64,000 bases of DNA, taken from Octopus vulgaris (Eukaryota). Under the pieces are notes generated by a model, which made no database searches, was not told where the DNA came from, and saw nothing but the letters and a program-made list of their open reading frames with translations. Shown piece after piece: positions 37,501 through 64,000 of the stretch (positions are counted from its first letter, which is position 1; every line of letters begins with the position of its first letter). The position numbers and the translations under genes were made by a program. The stretch covers positions 35,030,001 through 35,094,000 of the forward strand of contig OX597823.1 in the NCBI GenBank assembly GCA_951406725.2, written 5' to 3'.

Positions 37501-38517
<1,017 letters not shown>

Positions 38518-38539
38518 GTTGCTTTTAGCATTGTAGAAT

Positions 38540-38555: not shown

Positions 38556-40832
38556 CCTATATTATATCGAAGGTCCCCTCGCTTGATATGCTTTTCGCTT
38601 AGTTGCATTTTTCAGATTTCTGCTGTCTTTATACTTTATTGCCTTGCTTAAACGAATGAGACCCAAGCTGTGATGGTCAATCCTCTTAGGTACACGTATG
38701 TGGTCGTTTTGATTTGCGTTCATTTTGTGTGTGTATTAGAGAAGTTCTTATCTTAGACTGGAGCGCGATATTTTGATGTTATCACGATGTCGTACGTTTG
38801 GGTTTTAATGGGCAAAGTTCGTTGTTTATCAGTTCCTTTCGTTACGTCTATGTATAAAGAAATAGGTTTTAAGAAGTTAACTCTATTTGAAATATCTTGT
38901 GTGTTTTGACTGAGTTCGGACTGAATCTTGCTTTATGTACTGCATATAATCCCTGAGAATTTTGGGTGAGGGGTTGGTCGATTACATTAACCCCGGTACT
39001 CAACTGCTACTTATTCTATTGACCCTGAAAGGTTGAAAGCCAAGACCTGCCGTGGCGGAATTTGAACTTAGAATGTGAAAAGGTGGCAGAATAATTGGAG
39101 TGATGGGTAATATGCTTAGTGGCATGTCTGTCTTAAATTGATTTTAAGGTTTTTTATCAATCTTGAATCGTCTCAAAATGAGGTTTATAAATGCCGTGCG
39201 TAAGGCAGGATTCTCCCGCATAACCGACTTTAAACAACCCGTTTCCATTTCCCCATTACAGTCTTAGTTTTTTTTTTTTCTCTTAAGTCTACTGTCCACT
39301 GAACATTAGTGAAGTGGTTACATAAATATTACTCCCTAATATACATACTGTATTGTAGTAGGTAATCGGTCACCGTGTAGTACTCTTTGAATTGAGCATT
39401 GTTTGCGTAGTGGTTCAGTTTAATAAAATTATAACCGTACATCGTTCTGTTCCTGTCATTTTCCCGTTATATGCTTTTTTTTTGTCAGTTTGGAAACAGT
39501 TGGTCTGATAAAATTTGAAAGTGAATTGCTCGTGTTTAAAAGGGGTCCGTTATTTGAAAATTTTTCTGACCGTCAACACAATATTACCGTATGGACATAC
39601 GGTACATGTACTTAAATTTTCATTTCAATTAAATCGAATCTGATAAAAATCGCTGGCAATATCACCTATCTATAGAGAAAAGGTATTCACTTCTAATAGG
39701 CGATTCTTCAGAGCAAATAGTATCCCGCCCCGTACCGTATGGACATACGGTACATGTACTTAAATTTTCATTTCTTTGTCTATTAATGAAACGTTTCCAT
39801 TTTAGAAAGTAAGTATTTAAATGCCTAATAGTTTAGAAACCTTTTAAAACCGTTTCTTATATTTATTCTTTTACTTGTTATTTGACTGCGGCCGTGCCAG
39901 AGCACTACCTCAAAGAAATCGACACCAAGTTTTTCAATGTAAGCCTATCGTCTCCTTTTGCTGAACGGGGGCGCAGACACCAATATCGGTTGCCAAGCGA
40001 TGGTGGCGGGGAACAGACACATACGACTGGTTTCTATCAGTTCCGTCCACCAAATCCATTCAAGGGATATAGAAGTCATTGTAAAATACCAGCTACCGAT
40101 ATTAAATTTTCTAAATTTGTTGAATCTAAGATTCGTTATATTTTCAGTCTGGCTATTATTTTAACAATAACTTTATTAGTGATGCTATATATAATAGGAG
40201 GTTGATTTATTCAAATAACAGGCGGGGGTTTTCAGTTGCGCAACAAACGTCGTTCACTCCGCGGTGTTACGGTAGGAACTCGTTGAGGGGGCGAGCCTTC
40301 TTGTATTCATCTCAGGAAGAAAACAGCAGCAGTAGGCGGGTTTATTTTGACTGGAAGTGATTTAAAGCAGTTTTATGATTTTAAAAAGAAGCAGTGAACA
40401 GCCTTTTCTGTATAAAATAATAAAATAGGGTCTCTAGCACATCGCACGACCACCTGATACCTTCCTCGTTATTTTCTCACTGTAGTTTTCCAATATCTTA
40501 AAATTTACAACCCGCTCCTTCGTCGCTGCGGGTTGTCGAACATGCAAATTGAAATTAAATAGACAAAGGATTTGCATCTTACTAGGTTGCCTCAATTTCA
40601 AACTTTAAACTTTCTCATTTATTCACCTATACCTTATCTCTCTACACAAAATTATCGAAAACGTAGGAGTGACATTTGAAAACTTAGGGGAAGGGTAGAT
40701 TGAGATGGACAATATAAATTTTGGGGAAAAAAAAAAGCTTTAAAACTTAATTGGGGAGATGAAGTAGAAAGGATTTAAAAGACAAAAATCGCAAACAAGA
40801 AGTCGAAAGAAAACAATACGCAAAGTGTGAGG

Positions 40833-40848
40833 GGCCCTGAAAAGGACC
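40833..40848 (-). terminator. Histone 3' stem-loop (H2A)
   Basis: Reverse complement GGTCCTTTTCAGGGCC. Confidence 0.9.
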
Positions 40849-40888
40849 GTTGATACGATAAAGCACAAATGCCTCAGTAATAAGTAAT

Positions 40889-41266
40889 TTACTTGGCTGC
40901 CTTCTGAGTCTTCTTGGGGAGAAGGACAGCTTGGATGTTGGGAAGAACACCACCCTGGGCGATGGTCACTCCAGACAAAAGTTTGTTCAATTCTTCGTCG
41001 TTACGGATGGCCAACTGCAAGTGACGGGGAATAATTCTCGATTTCTTGTTGTCTCTGGCAGCATTTCCTGCCAATTCCAACACCTCAGCAGCCAAATATT
41101 CCATCACAGCGGCCAAGTAGACTGGGGCTCCGGCACCAACACGTTGAGCATAGTTTCCCTTACGGAGAAGACGATGGATACGACCGACGGGGAACTGAAG
41201 CCCGGCGCGGGATGAACGGGTCTTGCTCTTTCCCTTTACTTTACCTCCTTTACCACGTCCAGACAT
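40889..41266 (-). CDS. H2A: Histone H2A
   Basis: 125 aa [29 protein letters not shown]...[11 protein letters not shown]; the true ATG is at 41266 (the ORF track extends it upstream). Confidence 0.98.
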
Positions 41267-41532
41267 ATTCAAAGATTGACAGTAACGTTCAGCAAAATAC
41301 TCCAAATAATATTTTTTTGAGCTTCTTTTGCCTTTAAATACAAGTTAGGAGGCTCCAGCAGTCAGAAGCTGCTAAGCGAAAACGAGCGCGGGATCATGTC
41401 ACGTGATTAGGCTGCTGTCAAAATCCACCAATGAAATTGAAAGGCGCGCAATGTCAGCTAGTTGCTCCGCTGAGCCTACTTGTCCCTTATAAATAGAGTA
41501 GGCAAGCAGTTGGACAGTACGTAACTGACATT
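41267..41532. promoter_or_regulatory. Divergent H2A/H2B promoter
   Basis: TTTAAATA at ~41333, TCACGTGA at ~41399, CCAAT at ~41427, TATAAATA at ~41488; a near-identical copy lies at 54524-54789. Confidence 0.75.
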
Positions 41533-41910
41533 ATGCCACCAGCACCAGCAACTGCTTCGAAAGGAGCCAAGAAGGCTTCCAAGGCTAAGGCCTCTCGCCC
41601 TACCGGCGACAAGAAGCGAAAGAAGAAGAGGAAGGAAAGTTATTCCATCTACATCTACAAAGTAATGAAACAAGTCCACCCCGACACTGGCATCTCCAGC
41701 AAAGCTATGTCCATCATGAACAGTTTTGTCAACGATCTGTTCGAAAGAATAGCCTCTGAATCTAGCCGTTTGGCTCACTACAACAAACGTTCAACCATCA
41801 GTAGCCGTGAGGTTCAGACTGCTGTCCGTCTTCTCCTCCCTGGTGAGTTGGCCAAGCACGCAGTCTCTGAGGGTACCAAGGCTGTCACCAAGTACACTAG
41901 CAGCAAGTAA
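41533..41910 (+). CDS. H2B: Histone H2B
   Basis: 125 aa [10 protein letters not shown]...[26 protein letters not shown]...AVTKYTSSK. Confidence 0.98.
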
Positions 41911-41936
41911 ATCTTAGTCTTTGCTCTGCGAATAAC

Positions 41937-41952
41937 GGTCCTTTTCAGGACC
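41937..41952 (+). terminator. Histone 3' stem-loop (H2B)
   Basis: GGTCCTTTTCAGGACC. Confidence 0.95.
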
Positions 41953-42533
41953 ACCCATATTCTCATGATTGTTACTTTCGACTTTCTATTGATTTGCGTT
42001 TGTATTTGTAAAATGTCTTAACGTTACCTAAAACTGTATTTATAGCAGAATTCTCCCTGGCGTCCAGGTGTATTTCATGCAAAACTGGTTCTTTCTAAGG
42101 ATACTTTGGTTTGGCTATGTCTAATTTTATTGAAGTTGGCACTGTCATGCTTTTATGTAAAAATGTTAGGCACGCACTTTATCTCGGCACTACTAGCGAA
42201 CAGTGCGCACTGGCTAGTCGTAAGTAGTCGGTCCTACAACGACTTGCGCGTATACATGTTTGTATTTCAACGCTGAATACATATCAGAAAATTGTTTTTT
42301 TAATATTTTTCAAACAAAGTAAATAATTAAAAAAAAAGTTTTTTAACCCTAAACGTAACCTTAGTTGTTTATAAAAAATAATTTATTTACTTAGTTAAAA
42401 AACTTATTTACTTTGTTCAAAATTTGTGTAAAAAAAATGAGGGATTCAGCCTGTTTCTAACACCACCTTAACAACTCTTCTTTTAGGCACATTCTATAGC
42501 ACCCTCGTCCTACAAGGTCTTTGGGTCAATGTA

Positions 42534-43085
42534 TCACCCGGGAACAATAGAAAAATTAACCAGCCTGGTGTGGGGAATATACATGCACGCTGGCGACCCT
42601 GTGGGTGGGGAGGAGACTTTCGGAAAATTCACATGATCCGGGGATATATATTGATTCTTCTCTAAGGAATCCCGTGTTTTTGGTTACGGAGGATCCGATT
42701 CTGAAAAAGCATTTTCAAAATTTCAACCCCACCCATCACTTCATTTTTCACTTTATCCGGATTTTTTAAAAAATATTTTGCGAAATACGTAGAAAATGAA
42801 TTATTTGCAATATTTCAAGAAAAAAGAGTATATATACCCTCAGGCCTTCAAGCAGACTGCTCACTTGCTAGAAATAACAGCTAAATTTCACAAAACTGCG
42901 GTAACATAAATGAAATTTCGAAAATGCGATTTTTGAAAATTTTTTCGGAATCGGATCCTCCGTAACCAAAGACGTGGGATTCCGTAGCAAAAAAAGGGTC
43001 GTCAGCGCGTATATTTGTTTTCATATTCGTTTTCCACACACTTGTTAGCACCCCCAGGCTGGTTTAATTTTTTTTCCTGGGTGAG
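42534..43085. mobile_element. MITE-like element with long imperfect inverted arms
   Basis: TCACCCGGGAA..AAAAATTAACCAGCCTGG pairs with CCAGGCTGGTTTAATTTTTTTTCCTGGGTGA; inner TTTGGTTACGGAGGATCCGATTC pairs with GAATCGGATCCTCCGTAACCAAA. Confidence 0.65.
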
Positions 43086-43815
43086 GATCTTTATATCAAC
43101 TGATCTTTGAGGTTTGCAACAACCTCATCAATTTTACTGCAATCAAATATTGCAGTATTCTCTTAAATAGAATTTCCTGATAACACCATTATGGCTCATA
43201 TACAATATATGCAAAATTTTGTTTTGTAACATCGTATAGAGACAAAATCACACGTTAGCACACCAGGCGAAATGATTAGCAACATTTTATCCATCTTAAC
43301 GTTTTGAACTCAACCGAGGTCGACTTTAGTATTCATCCTTTCAAGGTCGATGTGATCGATGAGCCCCCTTCCTACAAAATTTCAGGCCTTGTGAAAAAAA
43401 AAAAATGATATTTCTAACAAGCTATTAATTTTTGGATATAGGATCCACAGTAGCCGACTGGTAGGCTAAGTCGATTTAAAACGATGTAACTAATGGCTGC
43501 ATTTTAAACTCTTGATAGTTTGGGTGTAAAATTTATGAGCAACTGGTACATTTTAAGATTTGAATTCCTTTCACTTGCTTTTGTTTACCATTTCCGGGGC
43601 TACAAGTTGATGCAACAGATGACGATTATTTTAATTTGGCGCCTTGTGATTTCATTGGTTAAAATTTAAAAGTCTAGTGACATGGATGCCTAATTAGCAA
43701 CTACTGCGTCATGGAGCCGACTAAAGCTTATTTAAAGGTAAAGTAAATATAACCAGCTTAATTTGCTGTTCGCTGCATAATCTACAACCAATTTGAATAA
43801 ATTTTAATAAACTGA

Positions 43816-43890
43816 CCGTGGTAAAAGAGGTAAAGTAAAGGGAAAGAGCAAGACCCGCTCATCCCGTGCCGGTCTTCAGTTCCCCGTCGG
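43816..43890 (+). pseudogene. H2A: Truncated solo histone H2A fragment
   Basis: CGTGGTAAAAGAGGTAAAGTAAAGGGAAAGAGCAAGACC...TTCCCCGTCGG; the ATG is lost, and the sequence then jumps to the equivalent of ~60420 (~670-bp deletion relative to the intact copy at 59667). Confidence 0.9.
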
Positions 43891-46104
43891 GGATTGTTAT
43901 TTTTTCTTTATATGCATGTAATAAGTGGAAACCCGATTCAGTGGACTTGATTTGGTAGCAATTTAAATTTTGAGTAGGTGTTCAAAAATAATACATTACA
44001 TACTATCAGCTTCTTTTGTCAGTTTGAATATTATTTGCGTATAAAATGGGACCGTTATTTGAAAAGTTGATTCTGATCGTCAACGCAAACATTGTACACG
44101 TTTTCATTATAATTAAGTCTACTGTCCATTGAACCTGCTAGAAATAGCAGTCAAAATCAACTCATCTAAAGAAAAAATTCCCCTAACAACTGATTCGTCA
44201 AAGCAAATCATATCCCGCTCCGAAAGAGAAAATCTTAGCCTACTAACGAAACGTTTTAGAAATAAACGTTTATTTAAATATCCAAGTGTACTTTAACCTC
44301 AACATAGCTTTTAAATTTAAATAGGAGCAGGCATGGCTGTGAGTTAAAAAGCTTGCTTTTCAACCACATGTGTCTGGCACCTTGGGCAAGTGTCTTCTAT
44401 ATCCCTTGAGTGGATTTGGTAGACGGAAACTGATAGAAACCCGTCGTATATGTGTCTGTTCCCCGCCACCATCGCTTAGCAGCCGATATTAGTGTTTACG
44501 TCCCCCGTTCGGCAAAAGTTGACGATAGAATAAGTACCAGGCTTACATTGAAAGTCCTGGGGTCAATTTCTTTGAGGTAGTGCTCTAGGATGGCCGCAGT
44601 CAAATAATAAGTAAAAGAATAAATATAAGAAACGGTTTTAAAGTTTTTTGAAGATAAAGTAAACTATTAGGCATTTAAATACTTATTTTCTAAAATGGAA
44701 ACGTTTCATTAATAGCCAAAGATGTTCTCTTTCGGGGCGGGATACTATTTGCTCTGAAGAATCGCCTATTAGAAGTGAATATTTTCTTTTTCTTTAGATA
44801 GGTGATATTGACAGCGATTTTTATCAGATTCAGGACTGCAGATTTGATTAATTGAAATGAAAATTTAAGTACATGTACCGTATTTCTATATGGTAATATT
44901 GCGTTGACGGTCAGAAAAATTTTCAAATAACGGTCCCCTTTTATACACAAGCAATTCATTTACAAATTTTATCAGACCAACTGTTTTCAAACTGACAAAA
45001 AAATTAAAAAACGTACGTAACGGGAAAATGACAGGAACAGAACGATGTACGGTTATAATTTTATTAAACTGAGTTTTGACAACCACTACGCAAACAATGC
45101 TCAATTCAAAGAGTACTACACGGTGACTGAGTACTACAGTATGTATATTAGGGAGTAATATTTATGTAACCTCTTCACTAATGTTCAGTGGACAGTAGAC
45201 TTAAGAGAAAGAAAAAAAAAAAACTAAGATTGTAATGGGAAAATGGAAACGGGTTGTTTAATAGAACTTTTACAAAATGCTTATCCTGGTCTTTTCCATC
45301 CCCAATAAGGTCGGTTATGCGGGGGAATCCTGCCTTACGCACGGCATTTATAAACCTATTTTTGAGAGGATTCAAGATTGAAAAAAATAAACTTTAAAAT
45401 CAATTTACGAAGTCTGGATTAGGGGCATTTTAAAAGTCCGAATTGTTTGCTTAAATCCCAGCAATGTGTTGAAAGATTGAAACAAATAAGAGTATGAGAC
45501 ATGCTAAAAATAACAGCTAAAAACCCTTAAATAGTGCAAATTTTATTTTGGTCCTTGCATCGTATGAATTCCTGCGTCGAATACACATTCGCAAAACTTT
45601 TTGAAAATTCCAAATTGAGGGGTTATATGCAGTGCATAAAGCAAGATTCAGTCCGAATTTCTAATTCAGTTAAGATACGCAAGATATTTCAAATACAGAG
45701 TTAACTTCTAAAAACCTTTTTCTTTATACATAGACGTAACGAAAGAAACTGAAATATTGAAATTTGCCCATTAAAATCTAAACGTACGACTTCGTGATAA
45801 CATCAAAATATCGCGCTCCAGTGTAAGACAAGAACTAAGGAACTTCTCTAATACACATATAAAAAGCAGTTACATCCACAAAATGAATGTTAATCAAAAC
45901 GATCTTAAGACGACTACATACGTGTACCTAAGAGGATTGACCATCACCGTTCGGGTTCCATTCGTTTATGCAAGGTAATACATTAAGTGTAAAGACAGCA
46001 GAAACCTGAAAAAATGTAACTAAGCGAAAAGCATATCAACCGAGGGGACTTTCGATATAGTATAGGGGCCCTAAAAAGCGCCATTCTACAGTGCTAAAGG
46101 CAAC

Positions 46105-46487
46105 TTAAGCTCTCTCGCCACGGATACGACGGGCAAGCTGGTATCTTCGAACGACGGGCAAGTTGGTATCTTCGAAAAGACCAACCAAGTAACTTCACTA
46201 GCTTCTTGAAGAGCCATCACAGCAGAACTCTGGAAACGAAGATCAGTCTTGAAGTCCTGAGCGATTTCACGAACAAGTCTCTGGAAAGGAAGCTTCCTGA
46301 TGAGAAGTTCGGTGGATTTTTGGTAACGTCTGATTTCACGAAGAGCAACGGTACCAGGCCTGTAACGATGAGGTTTTTTCACACCGCCAGTAGCTGGGGC
46401 ACTTTTCCTGGCTGCCTTGGTAGCCAGTTGCTTACGTGGAGCCTTTCCACTGGTGGATTTACGAGCAGCTTGCTTAGTACGAGCCAT
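46105..46487 (-). pseudogene. H3: Histone H3 pseudogene
   Basis: 383 nt: a 52-nt deletion, a 25-nt tandem duplication (46126-46175), a 1-nt deletion, substitutions ([10 protein letters not shown]) and a mutated stem-loop (GGCGCTTTTTAGGGCC, 46067-46082). Confidence 0.92.
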
Positions 46488-46514
46488 CACGATATGTCAG
46501 CGAACGCAGAATGA

Positions 46515-49500
46515 ATAAATTTCTTTATTACCCATAAGGGTTTACACAGATGGGGACAATACAATGATTTGGGGTCATGTGGATGAAATGGAATTATTTA
46601 CAGTGAAATCGAATGAATTATTTACAATGAAATCGAATGAGTTACAAGAACAAACGAACAAAAAGGGACATATGAAGTCAAAAGAACAGGATAGCCGATC
46701 CCACGAGCCCTGTTATTTTAACTGAAACCTTTGGTAAGTGATCATGACGTGTTCATGCAAGGCCTTTCACACCTAGCATCCGTGCAACACGCATCCATCT
46801 TCTTTTGAATACGCGCTCTGACAGACACATTTTCTCCAGCCCCACCTTTCTTTTCAGATGGAACTTGAAAAAGTTCGTTAGGGCGGTGCCAGAGATCATG
46901 GTGTCTGTCATTATACCTTTCACTCTAGTCTTCCATATAACCCCTTTCGCAACTGCTACTATCACGAGAAAGCAATGCTTACCTTCGTTCGTCATGAAAC
47001 CAGGCGACGACAGCTGTACTCTTCTTCCGTCCGACTATAGGTGTTCGGCATAAGCCCACACGTCCGAAATATCCGGACACTGAACAATAGCGTGCAGGAT
47101 TGTTTCCACATCTCTCTCCCGCATCTTGGATAGACCGATGGTCCTTGTGAGTTTATCTCGAACGGGTAAGGCTCCTCTGTAACATTGCCAGGCCAAGGAC
47201 TTCTGAAAATTATCCAGTGTACCTGGTCGGAATGTCCTTTGAAACAGGCTGTTAACTGATTACCATCGAGACCCAGGGTCCTTCCCAGGGTATCGTCATT
47301 TCCGGCCTCTACCAACCTGCTATAGAACGCTGCGGTGGTACCAAAGCCAGCGGCATTGCCCGAGCTGCGGAAGCGTAAGAGAGCCCTACGGCACTCCGAA
47401 TACCACATACTCGATCTTAGTCTGCAACGGAACCAGGTTTCTCTACCACCAAAACTGGCTAAGCTGGGGAACATCTGTTTTGCGAGCGGGGACGACACCC
47501 GTTCACCTTCCAGGTAGAGCCAAAGATGCCTCAACCTCAAGCATGCTTGCGCATCAACAGCCAAAGTATCTTTAACCCACCCTTTAACGGCTTTTGACAA
47601 CAAATCGAACGTCTCACAAGAGGAGTGGAACCCTTCCACAAAAAGCGAAAGATTTGCCTCTCCATCTTGCTCAACCACGAATCCGGACAAGGGACGACGG
47701 TTAGGCGGTATATGATGACCGATGCCATGAACACATTGGCCACCTCCGCCCTCCCTTTCAAGGATAGCCACCGCCAAGACCAAGTCTTGACCACGTGAGC
47801 CACCTTGCTCGCGACCTCAAACCAATTCTTTTTTATCTGGAGACCTGGACCAAACCAGATCCTTAGCAATTTGACCGGGCCCTCCGTCCAGCATCCCATG
47901 ATGCTATTCGAAGGCATCGACTTGCCAACCCAGGTGCAGAGTTGCAAGCCGACTGACTTTTCCCGGTTGATTTTTGCTCCTGTCACCGTCTCGTACTCCT
48001 TGATGTTGTCTCCTACATTCTGTAGGTGTTCCACCTTGGTCACGATGTTGGCGATGTCGTCCGCATATGCTGTAACAGATCCTCCTCCTCCTGGATTCGT
48101 CGGGATGACGCTCTTCTTTCGCAGTAACGGCTCGAGAGCCATCACGTATAAAAGTTGGGAGAGCGGACACCCTTGACGAACTGACCGTTTGATGCGGAAC
48201 AGCCTAGAAAGTAAACCGTTCACCCGAACGATCGAGTCGATGCTGTCGTACAACTGTATAATCCACCTGAGGAAACCAATACCCAGCCCGAACTGTGCGA
48301 GCACAGACACCAAGTAACGATGGTGCACCTTATCGAAAGCTTTACTCTGGTCTCAATGGACCAGTGCCCCACCCTTGCCAGAGTTATTCCCGAACCCTTC
48401 TACGGTGTAACGTATAAGGTGAAGATTATCCTGAATAGTTCTTCTGGGGACTGCACAAGTCTGTGCCTCCCCGATCAGACCATCCGCGACATGCGTCAAC
48501 CTTTTCGCTAACACCTTGGCCAAAATCTTCACCTCTGCGTTCAGCAGAGTGATGGGCCTAAAGTTATCTATTCTATCCCCCTTGCCCGGGTCTTTCCTGA
48601 TCAGCGTCACCACTCCCCGGCATACAGACCTGGGAATCCTCCCATACTGATTCCAGTTCGTGAAAACGCTGGCCAGTATTGGCCCGAACAAGTCTGGCAT
48701 ACTTTTATATATTTCGGAGGGTAAACCATCGAGTCCCGGCGCCTTACCTCTGCCGCAGTCGGCTATGGCCTCAGTCACCTCCTCAGGCGTGATTGACCCT
48801 TCACAACTCTCCACATCCCGCTCCGAGAGGCGCGGCAGCCCGGCGAGGAAGTCCGTAAGGTCTCCCCTCTCATCCGGTCCACCTTCACCCCCGAAAATCT
48901 GGGCGAAGTGCTCCTGAAAAGTCCGACACATCTCCTCGGGTTCGTTTACCACATCGCCCTTCTCGTTCGTCATAGACTTAATTGTGGAATCGTTTCCGCG
49001 TTGAGCCTCCACAACTCGTGCCCATCCAGCGGCCTTAATTCCCTCGCACCCCATTGCACGAACTCTAGCTCTGACGATACAACCCATGTGCTTGGCTTCG
49101 AGGTGCTGGTTTAATTCCAGTCTCTTCGCCCTCACCTGAGTCCCGTCGCCAGATCTAAGGGCTTCATCTCGGGCCTTAACTAGCCCCTCTTCTTTCTTAC
49201 GCCTTTTATTTGCTAGTCCTATACTATATCTAATGGACTCGTATTTTATGGCTCTTTTGAGCGCTAACCACCATTTGTTGTTAAGAATGGAACCGGTTAA
49301 CGCCCTCTGAATTAGTAACCGTAATCCGGCTTCTGTACTCCTCAATCGCCAAAAGGGACTTATTGAGTTTCCAGTAACCGGATCCTTTTCTGCATAACTT
49401 ATCTAGGTACAGCTTACCAGTGATCATCTTGTGATCACTGTAACTGACCAAGTGAAACTGTGGGCACTTAACTATGCCTTTATCTAGTTCTCTAATAAAA

Positions 49501-49545
49501 ATCCTGTCTATGTAAGATTTGGAAGACCCGTCACTATATCGTGTA
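46515..49545 (-). mobile_element. 5'-truncated Tx1/L1-clade non-LTR retrotransposon (ORF2: APE endonuclease C-terminus, RT, CCHC finger), inactivated
   Basis: SYIDRIF..SDHKM (APE), GSGYWKLNKSLL, KAPGLDGLP, NFRPITLLNAEVKILAKVLAKRL, DQSKAFDKV, VRQGCPLS, AYADD and ETILHA. There is an in-frame TGA at 48353-48355 plus frameshifts. The ORF ends at 46753, and AATAAA lies at 46524-46529 (-). Confidence 0.92.
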
Positions 49546-49561
49546 TGTTTAAGAAATGGTT

Positions 49562-49564
<3 letters not shown>

Positions 49565-49606
<42 letters not shown>
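49565..49606. repeat. (TA)n microsatellite
   Basis: Direct reading. Confidence 0.95.
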
Positions 49607-49611
<5 letters not shown>

Positions 49612-50184
49612 AGTAGAGAATGAGACATCGTTCATCTGTCTCCCCACCACGCCTCCATCAACACAAAAATTTTGGGGGGCGCGAACGAGTTGTTTTTTTT
49701 TTTTTCGTAAAACACTTGATTGAACTAGCTAGTTTAAAGTGTATTTTGTTGAGAATGGATCCATGTTTTTGACAGCAAAGAGGTAAGTAAATTTTTACGT
49801 GTCTACATACACATGCACGCTATTGGAAAGACTTCCTCCCAAATTTTTTTTTGGTTCGGAGTTGGTCTGGAATGGAGGGACCCCACTCCTTCCAGAATTT
49901 TCGCCAAGGAAAATTTTTTTTTTTTAATTCGTCACAGTGTACAAAGTGAGTTGTGATTACCAACGTAGTGTTGTGGTATGAATGCATGCGTATAGTAATT
50001 GTGTCTGTGTGTCCGACAGAAGATACAGATAAAGGTGCATGCGAATACAACAGAAATACAGGTAAAATTACAGAGCATAAGAGAAGTCTCAGCATAGACA
50101 GGTAAAAATTCAGACAAACTGCTACTTACCTCTTACTGTCAAAAAATGGATTAATTCTCAGCAAAACATACTGTTATGCTAGAC

Positions 50185-50381
50185 CAATGGTTTTCAACCA
50201 GGGTTCCGCGGAACCTTAGGGTTCCGCCAGAAGTTGCAAAACTGCTAAAATCGGCAGTAATTATTAAGTCACCTGTGCAGATATGTGTGCATAAGACTAT
50301 TAAATTATTGCACAGGGGTTCCTCGAGCCAGTGGAATGTTTCCTTGGGGTTCCACTCCAGCAAAAAGTTTGAAAAGCACTG
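50185..50381. mobile_element. hAT (Charlie-like) MITE with 8-bp TSD
   Basis: Ends CAATGGTTTTCAACC...GTTTGAAAAGCACTG; TGCTAGAC is duplicated at 50177-50184 and 50382-50389. Confidence 0.85.
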
Positions 50382-50504
50382 TGCTAGACCAACGTTTTAC
50401 GAAAAAAACAAAAATAAAAATCTTTCGCGCGCAAAGTAATTTTTGTGTGTGGTGGTGAGAATGTTGTTTCTCTAGAGAAGTGATTTAAAATGAACATATC
50501 TTTG

Positions 50505-50507
<3 letters not shown>

Positions 50508-50576
<69 letters not shown>
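50508..50576. repeat. (GA)n microsatellite
   Basis: Direct reading. Confidence 0.95.
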
Positions 50577-50580
<4 letters not shown>

Positions 50581-50823
50581 CAAGCTGCATTATCTACCGG
50601 TAAACTTTTGCAAAATTAAAAATATTTTTTTATGTACGTGGGAAAATACAGAGATTAAGAATATGGAATTTTTTTAGCGACAGAAGGTACAAATAAAGGT
50701 GCATGCGAATACAACAGAAATACAGGTAAAATTACAGAGCATAAAAGAAGTCTTAGAATATTGACTTACTACAGAGTTAGTTACCAGTTCATGTGGTACA
50801 CGATAAGTTCTATAACGGTAAAA

Positions 50824-51741
50824 TTACAGAGAAACATATAATTTGGCAGCCTGTCGAAAGAATTTGTGGAGTAGCAAAAATGTATTACTCTCCGAGGAGA
50901 TAAATAAATATCTAGACAGATATTGATCTAAATATTCCGGCTTCATGCCTGGTCGCCGAATCCATTCTTTTACATCTCTCCACAAACGTTCAATGTTTTG
51001 TGTGTCGGATGTACAAAGTTTTCAGAATGGTTTATCACGTAATGGTGGTAACCCAAACTGCTTAGATCTTTGTAGGCAGCCCAAGAATCGCTGTAAATAA
51101 TTGAGCCAGGTTTGATATGTTTTTGGATTAGAGGAACCAGTGTCGCTTTGTCACGCTTCTTATTAATAAGAGGCACAAGAAAACGACGCTTACTGACTGG
51201 TTCGCTCTATTCCACCAAACAACCAAACTTGGCTCAAATGTCGACTCCTCCCGTATTTACGATGAACAATCAAAGTCTCATCAATTTCAACTTCGATTGA
51301 TTCGCCGCCGATCGCTTCCTGAGATTGAAGCCAATTTTCCGTGACTTCGGAACAAAATGATCTCCAGTCTACACTAGTTGCTGGACTCAATTCCAGGTTT
51401 TCTACGACTCTTTTATGCTGCCATGCACCAAGCAGAAACTCATTCACAAAGATAACAAGCTTCCATGGACGAATGCGTGCATTATCAAGAAAGGTCCCAT
51501 GAAAGTCTGATATCGAATAGCCACATTGACGCCGCTTCTTCGATTTTGCGATAGTAAAACTTTTCCTACATCTCCAAATATGCTGGTCTTCTCTGTATAC
51601 ACATTTGCTTCCACATCGAGGACATGTTACAGAAGTTGGTAGGACACCATGATTCCGAAGGAATTCTGTAGCTTTTCCGTCTTCCTGAATAAAGTTACGG
51701 ATGCAAATATAATATTTGAATTCGCAAGAAGCACAAGACAT
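50824..51741 (-). mobile_element. Merlin / IS1595 (ISXO2-like) DDE transposase pseudogene
   Basis: N-terminal zinc ribbon (CPRC...WRC...C), VEIDET..RKYGR...VWLFGGIER, RDKATLVPLIQKHIKPGSIIYSDSWAAY, VINHSENFV, QNIERLW...YLSRYLF; frameshifts near 51190 and 51000; ATG at 51741, stop at 50824. Confidence 0.9.
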
Positions 51742-51752
51742 CTTTACTTTGA

Positions 51753-52347
51753 TACGACCGATCAGCAAATGTCGCGTTCTTATTTTTGTTTCTGATCTCT
51801 CTCTCTCTGAAAGTCCCTTGATAGATAGATAGTGTAGCGAAGGTGAAAAAAAAAAACGAGAAAATGCTATGACCCACTTCCGTTGGCTGGGAAAAGAACT
51901 AATGGGTCTTATCTTGACACCGGTAAGAGAAATTAATGAGGGTAGGAAGAACCTCTGACCCTTACACGGTCAAGGAAAGTTGAGAAAAAAATAAATCTGC
52001 CACCCCTTTAAAATGCGGCGAGCTGGTGTTAGTAGATCAGGGACAGCAATGTTGAAGTGTAAAAGAAGGGGGAACTGTAAGATGTGTTTCTAAAAGGAAA
52101 AGAAAGAAAAGAGAAAAGAACATTGTCAGAAAAAAATAAGGAAAAGAAAGAGACTATTTGTTCTGATTGTTTTCGGACGTTGTGTTTTGTTTAAATGCAT
52201 TGATTGTTTTTTTGGTAACTTTTGTTTTTGTTTTTTCTTAAAACGCTGGCATGAAGCTGTAAAACTTTGAGAAAGAGAGGGGGCAGAGAGAATGTTGAGA
52301 GAGATCAGAAACAAAAATTAGAACGCGACATTTGCTGACCTGTCGTA
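51753..52347. repeat. ~50-bp inverted repeats bounding ~600 bp immediately upstream of the transposase
   Basis: TACGACCGATCAGCAAATGTCGCGTTCTTATTTTTGTTTCTGATCTCTCTC (51753-51803) versus GAGAGAGATCAGAAACAAAAATTAGAACGCGACATTTGCTGACCTGTCGTA (52297-52347). Confidence 0.8.
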
Positions 52348-54145
52348 ATTGCTTAATTGCAATTCCAGGGGTGCTAATGTAGATCTGCACCTCACCTAGA
52401 AAAAATGCATTTTTCTGAAAGAGTTTATTTAGAGTCCTAGGTTTTATATGTCAGAATAAACTTTTTCAGAAAAATACATTTCTGAAGGGGAGGTGTGAAT
52501 TTGCATTAGCCCCATTCCTAAATCTTTTAGTGGGTGCATCAAATAGCTTTTCTGTCATCCTCAAAAACTTCACGGATGCGAAAATGAAGGACATATATAA
52601 CAGGTATGTAGAACATATATTTCTGTACTTTCTGTTTATTCGTATAAATCATTGAAATTGTTGTGCGCGCGCACACAGACACGAATACACCAAATATACA
52701 CAATTTCTATATATATTTAATAACGAACCATGTAATTCACACCCAGGAAATTTTATTTCTGTAAAATGTTGGGAGTGGGTGAAACATCCGAGGCTTTCCA
52801 CCTCACCCCACTCAATTTTTCGAACCGCAAAAAGGGTTTTCTACCTTGTTGAGATGGGTTATGTTAGCATGTCACAGGAATTCATTCAACGGGAAAAAAA
52901 AATCCAATTCGCGACCCCCCTTTCCAAACCAAAATAAGGGATTTGCAGCATATTAGGGTAAGGAGGTCAGAGTACATGATTCAACGCAAAAAATCCGAAT
53001 TTTAAAATAAATATTTTTCCTTAGTGAAAATTGTGCCCTCCCTTCCGAACCAAAATATGGGATTTACCGCATATTACGAGGTCAGGGTACTTGATTCCAC
53101 GCAAAAAATCTGAGTTTTTTTTTTTTTTTTTGTGAAAATTCGGGGGGAGGGGGGTTGTGCGCTCCCTTCCGGACCAAAATATGAGATTTGCAGCATATTA
53201 GGAGGTCGGGGTACTTGATTCCACGCAAAAAATCCGATTTTTTTTGTGTGCTTTTTTTTAGTGAAAATCGTGCGGGTGTTACTGTTATTTTACCGATCTT
53301 TTTTATTAATGGTCTTGCTTAAACCAGAATTCCGCCTATGAAGTCTACAAAATGGCTATTATTTTAACAATAATTTTACTAGTGATGCTATAAAAGGAGG
53401 TTGTTGATTTATTCTCATAAAAGGTAGGGTTTTTCAGTTGCGCAACAAACATCATTCACTCCAGCAACGCGGTGTTACGTTAGGAACTCGTTGAGGGGGC
53501 GAGCCTTCTAGTATTCATCTCGAGAAGAAAACAGCAGCAGGAGGCGGCTGTAATAATTCAGCGGAGTTTGTTTTGACTGGAAATGATTTAAGGCAGTTTT
53601 ATGATTTTAAAAAGAAGCAGTGAACAGCCTTTTCGGTATAAAAAAATAAAATATGGTCTCTAGCACATCGCACGACCACCTGATACCTTCCTCGTTATTT
53701 CTCACTGTAGCTTTCCAATATCTTAAAATTTACAACCCGCTCCTTCGTCGCTGCGGGTTGTCGAACATATGCAAATTGAAATTAAACAGACAAAAAACAA
53801 AGGATCTGCATCTCACTAGTTTGCCTCAATTTCAAATTATCTCATTTATTTACTTATACCCTATTTCTCTACTTGGAACCCATCTTCTAAAGTGAATCCG
53901 AAGGAAAACAAAAGTATCGAAAACGCAGGAGTGACACTTGAAAACTTGGGGGAAGGGTAGATTGAGGTGGACAATATAAATTTGGGGAATAAAAAAAGCT
54001 TTAAAACTTGGGGAGATGAATTAGAAAGGATTTAAAAGACAAAAATCGCAAACAAGAAGTCGAAAGAAAACAATACGCAAAGTGTGAGAGGCCCTGAAAA
54101 GGACCGTTGATACGACAAAGCACAAATGCCTCAGTAATAAGTAAT

Positions 54146-54523
54146 TTACTTGGCTGCCTTCTGAGTCTTCTTGGGGAGAAGGACAGCTTGGATGTTGGGA
54201 AGAACACCACCCTGGGCGATGGTCACTCCAGACAAAAGTTTGTTCAATTCTTCGTCGTTACGGATGGCCAACTGCAAGTGACGGGGAATAATTCTTGATT
54301 TCTTGTTGTCTCTGGCAGCATTTCCTGCCAATTCCAACACCTCAGCAGCCAAATATTCCATCACAGCGGCCAAGTAGACTGGGGCTCCGGCACCAACACG
54401 TTGAGCATAGTTTCCCTTACGGAGAAGACGATGGATACGACCGACGGGAAACTGAAGCCCGGCGCGGGATGAGCGGGTCTTGCTCTTTCCCTTTACTTTA
54501 CCTCCTTTACCACGTCCAGACAT
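54146..54523 (-). CDS. H2A: Histone H2A (second paired copy)
   Basis: Same protein as 40889-41266; stem-loop at 54090-54105. Confidence 0.98.
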
Positions 54524-54789
54524 ATTCAAAGATTGACAGCAGCTTTCAGCAAAATACTCCAAATAATATTTCTTTGAGCTTCTTTTGCCTTTAAATACAA
54601 GTTAGGAGGCTCCAGCAGTCAGAAGCTGCTAAGCGAAAACGAGCGCGGGATCATGTCACGTGATTAGGCTGCTGTCAAAATCCACCAATGAAATTGAAAG
54701 GCGCGCAATGTCAGCTAGTTGCTCCGCTGAGCCTACTTGTCCCTTATAAATAGAGTAGGCAAGCAGTTGGACAGTACGTAACTGACATT

Positions 54790-55167
54790 ATGCCACCAGC
54801 ACCAGCAACTGCTTCGAAAGGAGCCAAGAAGGCTTCCAAGGCTAAGGCCTCTCGCCCTACCGGCGACAAGAAGCGAAGGAAGAAGAGGAAGGAAAGTTAT
54901 TCCATCTACATCTACAAAGTAATGAAACAAGTCCACCCCGACACTGGCATCTCCAGCAAAGCTATGTCCATCATGAACAGTTTTGTCAACGATCTGTTCG
55001 AAAGAATAGCCTCTGAATCTAGCCGTTTGGCTCACTACAACAAACGTTCAACCATCAGTAGCCGTGAGGTTCAGACTGCTGTCCGTCTTCTCCTCCCTGG
55101 TGAGTTGGCCAAGCACGCAGTCTCTGAGGGTACCAAGGCTGTCACCAAGTACACTAGCAGCAAGTAA
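54790..55167 (+). CDS. H2B: Histone H2B (second copy)
   Basis: 125 aa with one K/R difference from the first copy (KKRRKKRKE); stem-loop at 55198-55213. Confidence 0.98.
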
Positions 55168-55986
55168 ATCTGCTTAGTCTTTTGCTCAGCGTATAACGGT
55201 CCTTTTCAGGACCACCCATATTCTCATGATTGTTACTTTCGACTTTCTATTGATTTGCGTTGTCTTTGTAAAATGTCTTAACGATACCTAAAACTGTATT
55301 TGTAGCAGAATTCTCCCTGACGTCCTGTTGTATTTCATGCAAAACTGGTTCTTTTTAAGGATACTTGGTTTGGCTATGTCTTTAATTTTATTGAACTTTT
55401 ATCGGCAAGAATGTTAGGCGCGTACTTACTTTATCTCTGCACTACTAGCGAACAGTGGTCCCGGTGCGCGCATCCGCGCTAGCTAGTCGTAAGTAGTCGG
55501 TCCTACAGCGACTTGCGCGTATACATGTTTGTATTTCAACACTGAATACATATCAAAGAAAATTGGTTTTTTATATTTTTCGAACAAAGTAAATAATTTT
55601 TTAAAAAGTTTTTTAACTCTAAACCTAACCTTAGTTTGTTTATAAAAAATAATTTATTTACTTAGTTTATATTTTTCGAACAAAGTAGATAAAACGGAAA
55701 GAGAAAACATTTTCAAAATTTCAACCCCACCCACCACTTCATTTTTCACTTTATTCGGATTTTTTTTTTTTTTGCGAAATACGATTATTTTGAAAAATAA
55801 AAATATTTGCAATATTTCAAGAAAAAAAGAGTATATGTACCCTCTGGCCTTCAAGCAGACTGTTCACTTGCTAGAAATAACAGCTAAATTTCACAAAACT
55901 GCGATAACAAATGAAATTTCGAAAATGCGATTGTTGAAAATTTCCTCCGTAACCAAAAACGTGGAATTCCGTAAAAAAAAAATCAA

Positions 55987-57318
55987 GGTACTTGTCTATT
56001 GTCGTGGTCCCGGTTTCGCACACGCGAATTCGCGCGCGCGCCAGACGTAGGTACTCGATACTCGAGATCCTACGAGGTGACTTGCGCATGCGCAGTGCAG
56101 AATTCGCGCATGCGCGTTACCCCCCCCCCCAAAAAAAAAGGTGTTGGATTTCACTAAAAATATATGTGTGTGTGTGTGTGTATATATAACATTTTCAATT
56201 TTACACAAAAAAATTACATAGTCGCTTTCCTCGCGGATTTACAGATAAATGAATTAATTACTATTTTACAGAATAAAATTAATGAATTAATTATATAAAT
56301 TAAATAATTCTTGAAAATTAATTAATATTAATAATATTTTTTGAACAAAGTAAATAATTTATAAAACTTGGTTAATAATTTTTTTTACACAAACGCGAAC
56401 GTATATAATTTGTGAAACTTTTTTTTTTTTACAGACGTATATAATTTGGTAAACTTAATGAATTAATTTCTTCTCATCATCATCATCGTTTAACGTCCGT
56501 TCTCCATGCCAGCATGGGTTGGACGGTTCGACCGGGGATCTGGGAAGCCAGAAGGCTGCACCAGACTCCAGTCTTATCTGGCAATGTTTCTACAGCTGGA
56601 TGCCCTTCCTAACGCCAACCACTCCGAGAGTGTAGTGGGTGCTTTTTACATGCCACCCGCACAGGTGCCAGGCGAGGCTGGCAACGGCCACGGTCGGATT
56701 GGTGCCAGTCGAGGCGGCTCTGGCATCGGCCACGATTCGGATAGTGCTTTTTACGTACCACCAGTCCAGGGGTCCTGGCATTTGCCGGGTGTCACACTTG
56801 CCCCAACATGTCTTCGCAAGCAAAGGGGGTTGGCATGGGTGCCTGTCGTTGGATGAGGTTCGATATCAACTTCGCTTGCCTCAACAGGTCTTTGTGTATA
56901 AATGTATAAATTTTTCGCACTAAATTCTTTCCGTAGAATTTATCAAAAAACGCGCAAAATTAATATATTTTTTGAAATTGCAAATTATTTAGAATATAAA
57001 ACAAATGAAGTTAAATTTTAAAAATAAATGTCATATACTTATACTCTGTAAGGTGCTGTGTTCACACTTCAATTTACTATTTTCTAGAAATGTTGCTTTT
57101 CTAATTGAAACAATTTTTCTCAATCTCCATTTAAAAGTCCATAATGCCTCTTGAGACATATCAAAATGAACAACTTTGAATTACGCGGCGGCGGTGGTGG
57201 TGTGAGGTTCTAATTTTTTTTTCTGATCTCTCTTTGCCCCCCCTAGATGGAGGTGTGGTGGGGAGACAGATGAAAGATGTTTCATTCTCTACTATATATG
57301 TATATATATATATATATA

Positions 57319-57364
<46 letters not shown>

Positions 57365-58798
57365 TACACGATATAGTCTATAAATTTGGGATGTTTTTGA
57401 AAGATAATATATTTTGTCATCAGAATATATATACTTTCTCACACTACAATTAAGATATATTTATTTTAAATCGTTCATCTTTTCCCGCGACAACAAAAAT
57501 TGGGCGCGAAAATTTTTCTAAATATTAGCGGAATGAACAACTGAGATAAAGAGGGGGCAAAGAGAGATCAGAAAAAAAAATTAGAACCTCACACCACCAC
57601 CGCCGCCGCGTAATTCAAAGTTGTTCATTTTGATATGTCTCAAGAGGCATTATGGACTTTTAAATGGAGATTGAGAAAATTGTTTCAATTAGAAAAGCAA
57701 CATTTCTAGAAAATAGTAAATTGAAGTGTGAACACAGCACCTTACAGAGTATAAGTATATGACATTTATTTTTAAAATTTAACTTCATTTGTTTTATATT
57801 CTAAATAATTTGCAATTTCAAAAAATATATTAATTTTGCGCGTTTTTTGATAAATTCTACGGAAAGAATTTAGTGCGAAAAATTTATACATTTATACACA
57901 AAGACCTGTTGAGGCAAGCGAAGTTGATATCGAACCTCATCCAACGACAGGCACCCATGCCAACCCCCTTTGCTTGCGAAGACATGTTGGGGCAAGTGTG
58001 ACACCCGGCAAATGCCAGGACCCCTGGACTGGTGGTACGTAAAAAGCACTATCCGAATCGTGGCCGATGCCAGAGCCGCCTCGACTGGCACCAATCCGAC
58101 CGTGGCCGTTGCCAGCCTCGCCTGGCACCTGTGCGGGTGGCATGTAAAAAGCACCCACTACACTCTCGGAGTGGTTGGTGTTAGGAAGGGCATCCAGCTG
58201 TAGAAACATTGCCAGATAAGACTGGAGTCTGGTGCAGCCTTCTGGCTTCCCAGATCCCCGGTCGAACCGTCCAACCCATGCTGGCATGGAGAACGGACGT
58301 TAAACGATGATGATGATGAGAAGAAATTAATTCATTAAGTTTACCAAATTATATACGTCTGTAAAAAAAAAAAGTTTCACAAATTATATACGTTCGCGTT
58401 TGTGTAAAAAAAATTATTAACCAAGTTTTATAAATTATTTACTTTGTTCAAAAAATATTATTAATATTAATTAATTTTCAAGAATTATTTAATTTATATA
58501 ATTAATTCATTAATTTTATTCTGTAAAATAGTAATTAATTCATTTATCTGTAAATCCGCGAGGAAAGCGACTATGTAATTTTTTTGTGTAAAATTGAAAA
58601 TGTTATATATACACACACACACACACATATATTTTTAGTGAAATCCAACACCTTTTTTGGGGGGGGGGGCAACGCGCATGCGCGAATTCTGCACTGCGCA
58701 TGCGCAAGTCACCTCGTAGGATCTCGAGTATCGAGTACCTACGTCTGGCGCGCGAATTCGCGTGTGCGAAACCGGGACCACGACAATAGACAAGTACC
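55987..58798. mobile_element. 2.8-kb foldback DNA transposon (Merlin-like, non-autonomous) with ~1.25-kb arms and 8-bp TSD
   Basis: Termini GGTACTTGTCTATTGTCGTGGTCCCGG...CCGGGACCACGACAATAGACAAGTACC; arms 55987-57241 and 57553-58798; AAAATCAA is duplicated at 55979-55986 and 58799-58806; the spacer contains (TA)n. Confidence 0.88.
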
Positions 58799-59666
58799 AA
58801 AATCAATATATATCCATTTTACCAGAAGTAATGACGGAAAAATCGCATCTTGTGAATTTTCCGAAAGTCCCCTTTCCCTACCCCCAGGGTCGTCAGCGCG
58901 TATTTTTGTTTTCATATTCGTTTTCCACACACTTGTTAACACCCCCCAGGCTGGTTTAATTTTTTTTTCCTGGGTGAGGATCTTTATATTAACCGATCTT
59001 TGAGGTTTGCAACAACCTCATCAATTTTACTGCAATCATATATTGCAGTATTCTCTTAAATAGAACTTCCTGATAACACCATTACGGCTCATATACAATA
59101 TATGCAAAATTTTGTTTTGTAACATAGTATAGAGACAGACAAAATCACACGTTAGCACACAAGGCGAAATGATTAGCAACATTTTATCCATCTTAACGTT
59201 TTGAACTCAACCGAGGTCGATGTGATCGACGAGCCCCCTTCCTACAAAATTTCAGGCCTTGTGAAGAAAAAAAAATATTTCTAACAAGCTATTAATTTTT
59301 GGATATAGGATCCACAGTAGCCGACTGGTAGGCTAAGTCGATTTAAAACGATGTAACTAATGGCTGCATTTTAAGCTCTTGATAGTTTGGGTGTAAAATT
59401 TATGAGCAACTTGTACATTTTAAGATTTGAATTCCTTTCACTTGCTTTTGTTTACCATTTCCGGGGCTACAAGTTCATGCTACAGATGACGATTATTTTA
59501 ATCTGGCGCCTTGTGATTTCATTGGTTAAAATTTAAAAGTCAAGTGACATGGATGCCTAATTAGCAACTACTGCGTCATGGACCCGACTAAAGCTTATTT
59601 AAAGGTAAAGTAAATATAACCAGTTTAATTTGCTGTTCGCTGCATAATCTACAACCAATTTGAATA

Positions 59667-60044
59667 ATGTCTGGCCGTGGTAAAGGAGGTAAAGTAAAGG
59701 GAAAGAGCAAGACCCGCTCATCCCGTGCCGGTCTTCAGTTCCCCGTCGGCCGTATCCACCGTCTTCTCCGTAAGGGAAACTATGGTGAACGTATTGGTGC
59801 CGGGGCCCCAGTCTACCTTGCTGCTGTAATGGAATATTTGGCTGCTGAGGTGTTGGAATTGGCAGGAAATGCTGCCAGAGACAACAAGAAATCAAGAATT
59901 ATTCCCCGTCACTTGCAGTTGGCCATCCGTAACGACGAAGAATTGAACAAACTTTTGTCTGGAGTGACCATCGCCCAGGGTGGTGTCCTTCCCAACATCC
60001 AAGCTGTCCTTCTCCCCAAGAAGGCCAACAAGCCAGCTAAGTAA
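59667..60044 (+). CDS. H2A: Histone H2A, solo isoform
   Basis: 125 aa; [11 protein letters not shown] and C-terminal KKANKPAK differ from the paired H2A; stem-loop GGCCCTTTTTAGGGCC at 60069-60084. Confidence 0.97.
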
Positions 60045-62586: not shown

Positions 62587-62998
<412 letters not shown>

Positions 62999-63025
62999 CA
63001 CGATATGTCAGCGAACGGAGAATGA

Positions 63026-64000
63026 ATAAATTTCTTTATTACCCATAAGGGGTTTCACAGATGGGGACAATACAATGATTTGGGGTCATGTGGATGAAAT
63101 GGAATTATTTACAGTGAAATCGAATGAATTATTTACAATGAAATCGAATGAGTTACAAGAACAAACGAACAAAAATGGACATATGAAGTCAAAAGAACAG
63201 GATAGCTGACCCCACAAGCCCTGTTATTTTAACTGAAACCTTTGGTAAGTTCATGGCGTGTTCATGCAAGGCCTTTCACACCTAGCATCCGTGCAACACG
63301 CATCCATCTTTTTTTGAATACGCGCTCTGACAGACACATTTTCTCCAGCCCCACCTTTCTTTTCAGATAGAACTCGAAAAAGTTCGTTAGGGCGGTGCCA
63401 GAGATCATGGTGTCTGTCATTATACCTTTCACTCTAGTCTTCCATATAACCCCTTTCGCAACTGCTACTATCACGAGAAAGCAATGCTTACCTTCGTTCG
63501 TCATGAAACCAGGCGGGTCGATTTTTAAGATTGACTCAGACGACCGCTGTACTCTTCTTCCGTCCGACAATAGGTGTTCGGCATAAGCCCACACGTCTGA
63601 AATATCCGGACACTGACCAATAGCGTGCAGGATTGTTTCCACATCTCGCCCGCATTTTGGACAGACCGATGGTCTTCTGTGACCATGTCTTGTGAGTTTA
63701 TCTCGAACGGGTAAGGCTCTTCAGTAACATTGCCAGGCCAAGGACTTCTGAAGATTATCCAGTGTCCCTTGTCCGAATGTCCTTTGGAACAGGCTGTCTA
63801 ACTGATTACCATCGAGACCCAGGGTCCTTCCCAGGGTCTCATCATTTCCGCCCTCTACCAACCTGCTATAGAACGCTGCGGTGGTACCAAAGCCGCCGGC
63901 ATTGCCCGAGCTGCGGAAGCGTAAGAGAGCTCTACGGCACTCCGAATACCACATACTTAATCTTAGTCTGCGACGGAACCAGGTTTCTCTACCACCAAAA
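63026..64000 (-). mobile_element. Tx1/L1-clade retrotransposon 3' end (second copy, runs off the window)
   Basis: CCHC motif CPKCGRDVETILHAIGQC; the ORF ends at 63262; AATAAA at 63035-63040; collinear with 46515-47455. Confidence 0.9.

Follow-up and report, generated by a model that had tools for sequence, protein, structure and literature searches.

Of the independent insertions of a LINE family in Octopus vulgaris, roughly 30% adjoin histone genes, which likely reflects a preference of the family for histone loci in general and not for the H3 start site alone. The family came to our attention in a stretch of 64,000 nucleotides (contig OX597823.1, positions 35,030,001 to 35,094,000; hereafter the window), in which a LINE copy ends at the leader of a histone H3 gene. 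An initial annotation of this stretch had proposed an element that targets histone genes at the H3 cap site. The cap-site part of that idea is not borne out, while its wider part gains from a strong enrichment at histone loci by many independent insertions, including two start-site events at H2B leaders.

The element is a low-copy L1/Tx1-type non-LTR retrotransposon. An intact natural copy (L131:1093-5824) holds an open ORF1 of 444 aa and an open ORF2 of 1129 aa, and the window copies are 62-86% identical to this ORF2, depending on the segment. The ORF2 product (P0018) matches PF03372, PF00078 and PF13966 above cut-off, and the domain search gave no match to an RNase H domain. ORF1 has a zf-CCHC match under the curated cut-off (E 0.005), and its atlas neighbours are CCHC and ZCCHC3-like clusters. 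The nearest solved relative of ORF2 is human L1 ORF2 (E 1e-66), and the closest named relative of the RT, from Argonauta hians, is 60% identical. The name ‘Tx1-like’ used in the initial annotation agrees with the architecture (APE, RT, zinc finger) and with the nearest labelled matches, two of which, at 36-39% identity to ORF2, are called ‘TX1 149 kDa protein’; on the strength of such database labels, membership of the Tx1 clade proper is putative. Marks of target-primed insertion run through the family, with 5' truncations and target duplications of 8-18 nt at 31 of 76 tails, and the 3' flanks of these 76 tails fall into 58 different groups.

One metagenome scan was empty, and a second gave 80 loci of distant relatives (24-42% identity), none with a histone gene and most without flanks. 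Public sequencing runs gave 20 matches in 11 studies, with no RNA run among those listed. An abundant SINE of ~255 nt, presumably tRNA-derived, has its last ~50 nt in common with the LINE family. In SINE copies (L063-L102) the next bases are AGG in 23 of 40, mostly AGGTA and often as a target duplication; some copies of a sister LINE family have the same GGTA flank, which makes that family the likely partner of the SINE. The 306 matches to the shared tail motif were rejected as LINE copies: none of the 40 inspected among the 100 listed has LINE sequence past the ~50-nt shared tail, and each of 24 aligned matches carries at least part of one SINE.

The junction in the window and the histone array around it

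The minus-strand junction sequence quoted in the initial annotation is present in the window. The LINE is co-oriented with H3 and its tail ends at 46519, 31 nt upstream of the ATG at 46487, while the second junction, placed at ~63000-63040, has its tail end at 63030. Both H3-adjacent junctions lie within one duplication and represent a single event, as the annotation itself had cautioned. The features concerned are these:

37501..37812, minus strand: intact H4, marking the empty left end of the array
37813..38105, no strand given: promoter common to H4 and H3, with a TATA box at 38050; its homologue is joined by the LINE 5' end in units 3 and 4
38106..38518, plus strand: H3 of unit 1, with a one-base frameshift after codon 44
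40150..46518, no strand given: body of histone unit 1, with H2A 40889-41266 (minus), H2B 41533-41910 (plus), an H2A fragment 43817-43890 (plus) and H3 (minus)
46086..46487, minus strand: H3 behind LINE copy 1, a pseudogene with a frameshift and a deletion
46488..46518, minus strand: 31-nt H3 leader, its start being the transcription start predicted from spacing
46519..49537, minus strand: LINE copy 1, which has lost its 5' part; the 3' two-thirds remain, from the end of the endonuclease through RT and zinc finger to the 3' UTR
49538..52746, no strand given: younger insertions in place of the LINE 5' part and of the plus-strand H3 of unit 2; (TA)n run
52747..63029, no strand given: body of histone unit 2, with H2A 54146-54523 (minus), H2B 54790-55167 (plus), a second H2A 59667-60044 (plus) and H3 (minus)
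62586..63029, minus strand: frameshifted H3 with its leader, behind LINE copy 2
63030..64000, minus strand: 3' end of LINE copy 2, which runs on to G000:C10:35,097,623

The ORF2 of LINE copy 1 is interrupted by stops and frameshifts. LINE copy 2 retains ORF1, endonuclease and RT beyond the window and has an internal deletion of 0.5 kb. Some details of the initial annotation required correction: LINE homology ends at 49537 and not at 49545, and the H3 at 38106 has the homologous leader and the TATA box attributed to it but is frameshifted rather than uninterrupted. The suggested ATTC microhomology reduces to AT, the bases common to both sides of the junction, because the family tail reads ...AATAAAGAAAT in all copies. 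The insertion had also been thought to part H3 from its H4 partner; since the 52 kb examined around an empty paralogue contain no H4 upstream of it, the loss of such a partner is at most hypothetical for this copy.

This empty paralogue (L054, G000:C10:35,122,0xx, outside the window and 45 kb further on) keeps its promoter and TATA box. The junction position corresponds to a point 30 nt below the first T of that TATA box, at an Inr-like TTCATTT. Transcription usually starts ~30 nt below a TATA box, and from this spacing the junction would mark the true +1 of H3. A target-site duplication is absent at the window junction. In a near-complete copy, the LINE 5' end abuts the promoter of another H3 gene, oppositely oriented, ~110-125 nt upstream of the ATG of that gene. 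On another contig, a lone H3 (L051, G000:C4:10,368,276) has homology that begins no more than ~2 nt away from where the LINE junction lies and stops before the stem-loop; it is possibly a retrocopy, which would mark the mRNA 5' end, and no target duplication was seen when one was looked for.

At the C10 locus, four histone units stand in tandem; each of the three inner junctions has a LINE, and both outer ends are empty. Three features expected of a LINE-mediated tandem duplication are present: the junction is occupied by a LINE, a short target duplication is lacking there, and the outer ends are empty. In the history we propose, one start-site insertion, resolved without a target duplication, would have joined two H3 promoters. 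The LINE likely bridged a tandem duplication of the histone block, the alternative being a deletion between two existing units; since the flank behind the plus-strand H3 differs between unit 1 and units 3 and 4 through a change apparently older than the array, a deletion between older units fits as well as a fresh duplication. Unequal crossing-over would likely have followed, giving four units with a LINE at each of the three junctions, and the H3 copies deprived of promoter DNA may then have decayed. Recombination between two flanking LINE copies was ruled out as the origin of the array because both outer ends are empty, and so was fold-back inversion, the units being direct repeats. The LINE copies differ from each other by 3.0-3.9% and the units by 3.8-5.3%, while the nearest dispersed copies are 4.6-5.9% away; the outer units are 4.7% apart, similar to the 4.6-4.9% between the LINE and its nearest dispersed copies. 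The rate implied in the accessible part of PMC13282606 dates the divergence of the LINE copies and units to ~4-7 million years.

Only one of the six H3 copies of the array (38106-38518, 46086-46487, 62586-62998 and C10:35.098-35.122 Mb) is intact, the one at the right end with an untouched promoter, and the single-base frameshifts among the others may be assembly errors. The H2A and H2B pairs of the array remain intact, unlike most H3 copies. A palindromic insertion at 55987-58798, with 1258-bp arms that are 99% alike, is restricted to unit 2. The later insertions hold a transposase-like ORF (51190-51741), which we take to be Merlin/IS1595 and which gave no Pfam match. A Ser/Arg-rich ORF of 302 aa at 7211-8119 is probably an exon of a host gene.

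The distribution of insertions across the genome

Sequence-specific targeting of the H3 cap site, in the manner of Keno at U2, would agree with a junction at the predicted +1 of H3, but we give it almost no credence. The three LINE copies of the array are one event, and a genome-wide pattern search found no second H3-leader event; the proposed cap-site specificity fails for these reasons. Independent insertions at the same leader position were looked for among the best copies and genome-wide and none was found, a single one of 49 events lying at the H3 leader. Of the 30 best family copies, two are located there, and the leader motif occurs four times in the genome, filled by a LINE in two cases. 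The pattern of a tail followed by H3 has three genome-wide matches, two of them the window junctions and the third with no LINE behind. At the histone loci examined, a LINE is absent from the leaders of all further H3 genes, and the H3, H2B and downstream sites share no common target sequence. In a split H3-like gene (L062, G000:C25:34.2 Mb), the leader fits the tail pattern by chance, with no LINE behind.

The wider distribution was assessed by two censuses of one genome, of 2.8 Gb. A LINE-specific 3' motif gave 60 matches genome-wide in the first census, from which 15 matches of the distant sister family were removed before counting, and a second motif gave 46. Both motifs were derived from the window copy and its 30 best matches, 13 of which lie at or near histone clusters. 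Most matches were examined together with as much as 10 kb of surrounding sequence, and the histone loci in blocks; tblastn served to map the histone genes, histone stem-loops were listed, and events were collapsed by shared flanks before counting. Profile matches below 45 bits were left out (for example C28:5231717, at 37 bits). Two C29 tails lie 14-15 kb from a histone gene; one was merged by its flank with an event downstream of H4 and the other counted as non-histone.

A histone gene is found no further than 4.2 kb from 19 of 45 close-family matches in the first census and from 18 of 46 in the second. Collapsed to independent events, the two genome-wide censuses place 14 of 49 (29%) within this distance, or 13 of 48 without the window's own, and 8-9 (16-18%) within 1 kb, with 35 of the 49 away from histone genes. 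Chance would give 0.007-0.05 events for a target of 0.38-3 Mb, which corresponds to a 250-2000-fold enrichment. Even if all 226 first-look candidates were copies and the extras lay elsewhere, the share would be ~6%, about 160x the share of 1 Mb in the genome.

All methods together yield 20 events at 7 of the 13 histone loci examined, a set inflated by the more sensitive profile search inside histone loci. Sixteen lie downstream of a gene, three at start sites (H3 and two H2B) and one in an LTR upstream of H2B. The distance from the histone gene ranges from 10 to 4092 nt and is precise for the start-site subset only, so a narrow fixed distance like that of TRE elements is absent. The events are closer to genes than random placement in the same clusters would put them (median 733 vs 1396 nt, p=0.02). 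In the parts examined of six histone loci (C2:205.6, C3:61.1, C5:46.3, C9:47.9, C10:7.98 and C11:65.2 Mb) no copy was found, and the 0.7-Mb C29 histone cluster was covered by sampling.

A few old insertions multiplied by histone-cluster duplication could give the appearance of many, and this is true of several sites, which form groups of 2-5 identical junctions, the window's own included. Such groups were collapsed before counting, and the flanks that remain are non-homologous. The histone-locus insertions differ in length (56-4362 nt), have unrelated flanks and show target duplications of 8-18 nt at ~11 of 20 events. Two paralogous C28 H3 units each retain the empty site of the other's insertion, and in a 3' UTR tree of copies of at least 150 nt the histone-locus copies are scattered across several subfamilies. 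Multiplication by duplication is already largely refuted by these observations, and as an account of the whole pattern we consider it very improbable.

Orientation is uneven too: 18 of the 20 events are co-oriented with the nearest gene (p=4e-4), including 12 of 12 within 1.2 kb. One way to obtain such a pattern is random insertion and then selective retention, whereby short sense copies placed behind convergent histone genes would provide a stop signal (AATAAA) and be spread by turnover of the clusters. The histone-locus copies are in fact shorter (p=0.003, a detection-biased comparison), sense-oriented and AATAAA-bearing, and none lies in a coding region. Yet retention would require an advantage of at least 250-fold, repeated ~20 times, and start-site insertions break genes. 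It also fits poorly because the SINE with the same AATAAA tail is depleted at histone loci (0.115/kb, against 0.234/kb elsewhere) and unoriented there (20 co-oriented, 24 anti), and we regard it as improbable. Repeat cover (18.7% near histones, 21.5% elsewhere) and GC (39% and 38%) are in line with the genome at large. The sister family has 0 of 15 matches near histones (p=0.03), and 241 kb of SINE-anchored background contained no match to the family.

Start sites, other targets and a proposed origin of the bias

The start-site subset extends beyond H3. One H2B insertion, on C29, is present as three copies of one event; its end lies 30 nt below the TATA box, with 20 nt left to the ATG; another, independent, on C10 ends 9 nt before the ATG. 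In an ~830-bp TG...CA LTR, the LINE occupies one base 30 nt below the TATA box in 3 of 11 matching LTRs, and one of these three insertions is also counted among the 20 histone events. The filled LTRs are:

G000:C4:97,266,069 (L131): LINE of 5.1 kb
G000:C10:99,364,316 (L121): LINE of 0.3 kb
G000:C10:100,294,982 (L144): LINE of 4.6 kb

One empty LTR is followed by primer-site-like sequence. Three other copies lie in a C2H2 zinc-finger gene array (G000:C28:5.53, 5.57 and 5.90 Mb; L159-L161), 0.3-0.7 Mb from the C28 histone cluster. Because of these three copies and the three in LTRs, the cue is not histone-only. A Pfam search of 54 of 103 flank ORFs, hand-chosen and mostly the longer ones, returned other retroelements and zinc-finger genes only.

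The family might favour any Pol II DNA that is open and strongly transcribed, whether at start sites or in termination zones, with histone genes standing out as the most active of these loci in dividing germ cells. The three LTR copies at the same base, which have different 5' ends, point this way, as do the three copies in the zinc-finger array and the use of both the 5' and 3' zones of histone genes. Against this, among 31 reconstructed pre-insertion sites, a TATA box at -30 occurs in two LTR entries only; this set counts some duplicated copies and leaves aside the H3 and H2B sites, where a clean duplication is lacking. The reconstructed sites have a weak GG|C bias, and the LTR site equally fits a weak nick preference of this GG|C type. 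In 40 non-histone 10-kb stretches, a single tRNA was the only representative of tRNA, snRNA and rRNA genes, which were accordingly rejected as targets. Recruitment by histone loci has its main rival in this general preference for active Pol II DNA, with which it overlaps; taken as the full explanation, the general preference seems to us rather unlikely.

We lean towards an account in which LINE insertions favour histone loci generally, and hold it to be probable, if not securely so. The protein-RNA particle would be recruited to strongly transcribed DNA, histone loci above all; where the DNA is open, around start sites and past the stem-loop, it would cut the template strand first. The template strand is proposed for the first nick because of the sense orientation of the insertions under target-primed reverse transcription. 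We infer that the bias arises at insertion and that the LINE particle is tethered to highly transcribed loci; the domain search and atlas neighbours revealed no tethering or reader domain in ORF1 or ORF2. A bolder version, which we offer tentatively, takes replication-dependent histone loci to be the home of this LINE lineage. The element would dock on the histone transcription machinery, insert in sense at the +1 or in the termination zone, could borrow the host promoter at the +1 and would reshape histone gene number. A test of how the LINE is steered is practical because the intact natural ORF1/ORF2 copy (L131) exists.

Comparison with known targeted and rearranging elements

The array resembles the deletions and tandem duplications mediated by L1 (accessible part of PMC7058536), in which one LINE likewise bridges two distant sites without a target duplication. 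It differs from those rearrangements in being germline, ~9-10 kb in size and a few million years old, and in having later grown to four units. A route is thereby shown by which a LINE alters histone gene dosage.

In Drosophila, the LTR element 297 has inserted in an H3 TATA box, where it uses a short TA-rich target. It shares with the octopus LINE an insertion in a histone promoter, but it is an LTR element and, as far as is known, a single case, whereas the octopus LINE has a family-wide bias. The TRE elements of dictyostelids are tethered to Pol III factors. An orientation bias relative to the gene, which is a TRE-like trait, is present in the octopus LINE (18 of 20 co-oriented, compared with 20 of 44 for the SINE). 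Dictyostelid TRE5 and TRE3 are non-LTR elements that insert ~50 bp upstream and ~100 bp downstream of tRNA genes, respectively, as described in the accessible part of PMC5006619, and such targeting of the vicinity of tRNA genes, which the octopus LINE resembles in its mode of action, is also the subject of the portion of PMC6719617 available to us. As with TRE5 and TRE3 (PMC5006619, same part), the octopus LINE is placed relative to a multicopy gene and not by a target sequence, and both upstream and downstream zones are used. Unlike them, it is found at Pol II histone genes instead of tRNA genes, at broad distances and with 71% of events elsewhere, in a 2.8-Gb genome that is not compact.

Target-specific LINEs of the Tx1 clade include Keno at U2 snRNA, Kibi and Koshi at microsatellites and Tx1-Mar, with Tx1-8_Crp and Tx1-4_AMi in LTR elements (accessible part of PMC4494074). 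The same part names RNA genes, microsatellites, satellites and transposons as Tx1 targets and takes an element to be target-specific when >20% of its 100-1000 bp flanks hold one sequence type, to which the octopus figures for proximity to a histone gene, 16-18% of events at up to 1 kb and 29% at up to 4.2 kb, may be compared; the word histone has 0 occurrences in PMC4494074. In the searched literature, whose scope left subscription journals and Repbase outside, we found no report of a histone-favouring LINE. None is described in the accessible parts of PMC6136364, PMC10946416, PMC7334843 and PMC8869645, and histones are unmentioned in that of PMC13282606. Like the Tx1 elements of PMC4494074, as far as its accessible part describes them, the octopus LINE has an APE-RT architecture, a bias for a multicopy locus, some copies that hit an LTR at one and the same base, and a tail-sharing SINE. 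Unlike them, it has no single target sequence, its sites range from the start site to 4 kb downstream, and it favours a family of protein-coding Pol II genes. It lacks the pattern of Keno/Mutsu-type elements, in which the bulk of the copies occupy a single base of a single multicopy gene.

Known targets of retrotransposons include RNA genes, microsatellites and other transposons. If the bias of the octopus LINE arises at insertion, histone loci would form a new target class, and the family would test the steering of an APE-type LINE by nuclear compartment and not by sequence. Should histone loci prove to be its home, tethering to protein-coding genes would here parallel the targeting of tRNA genes.
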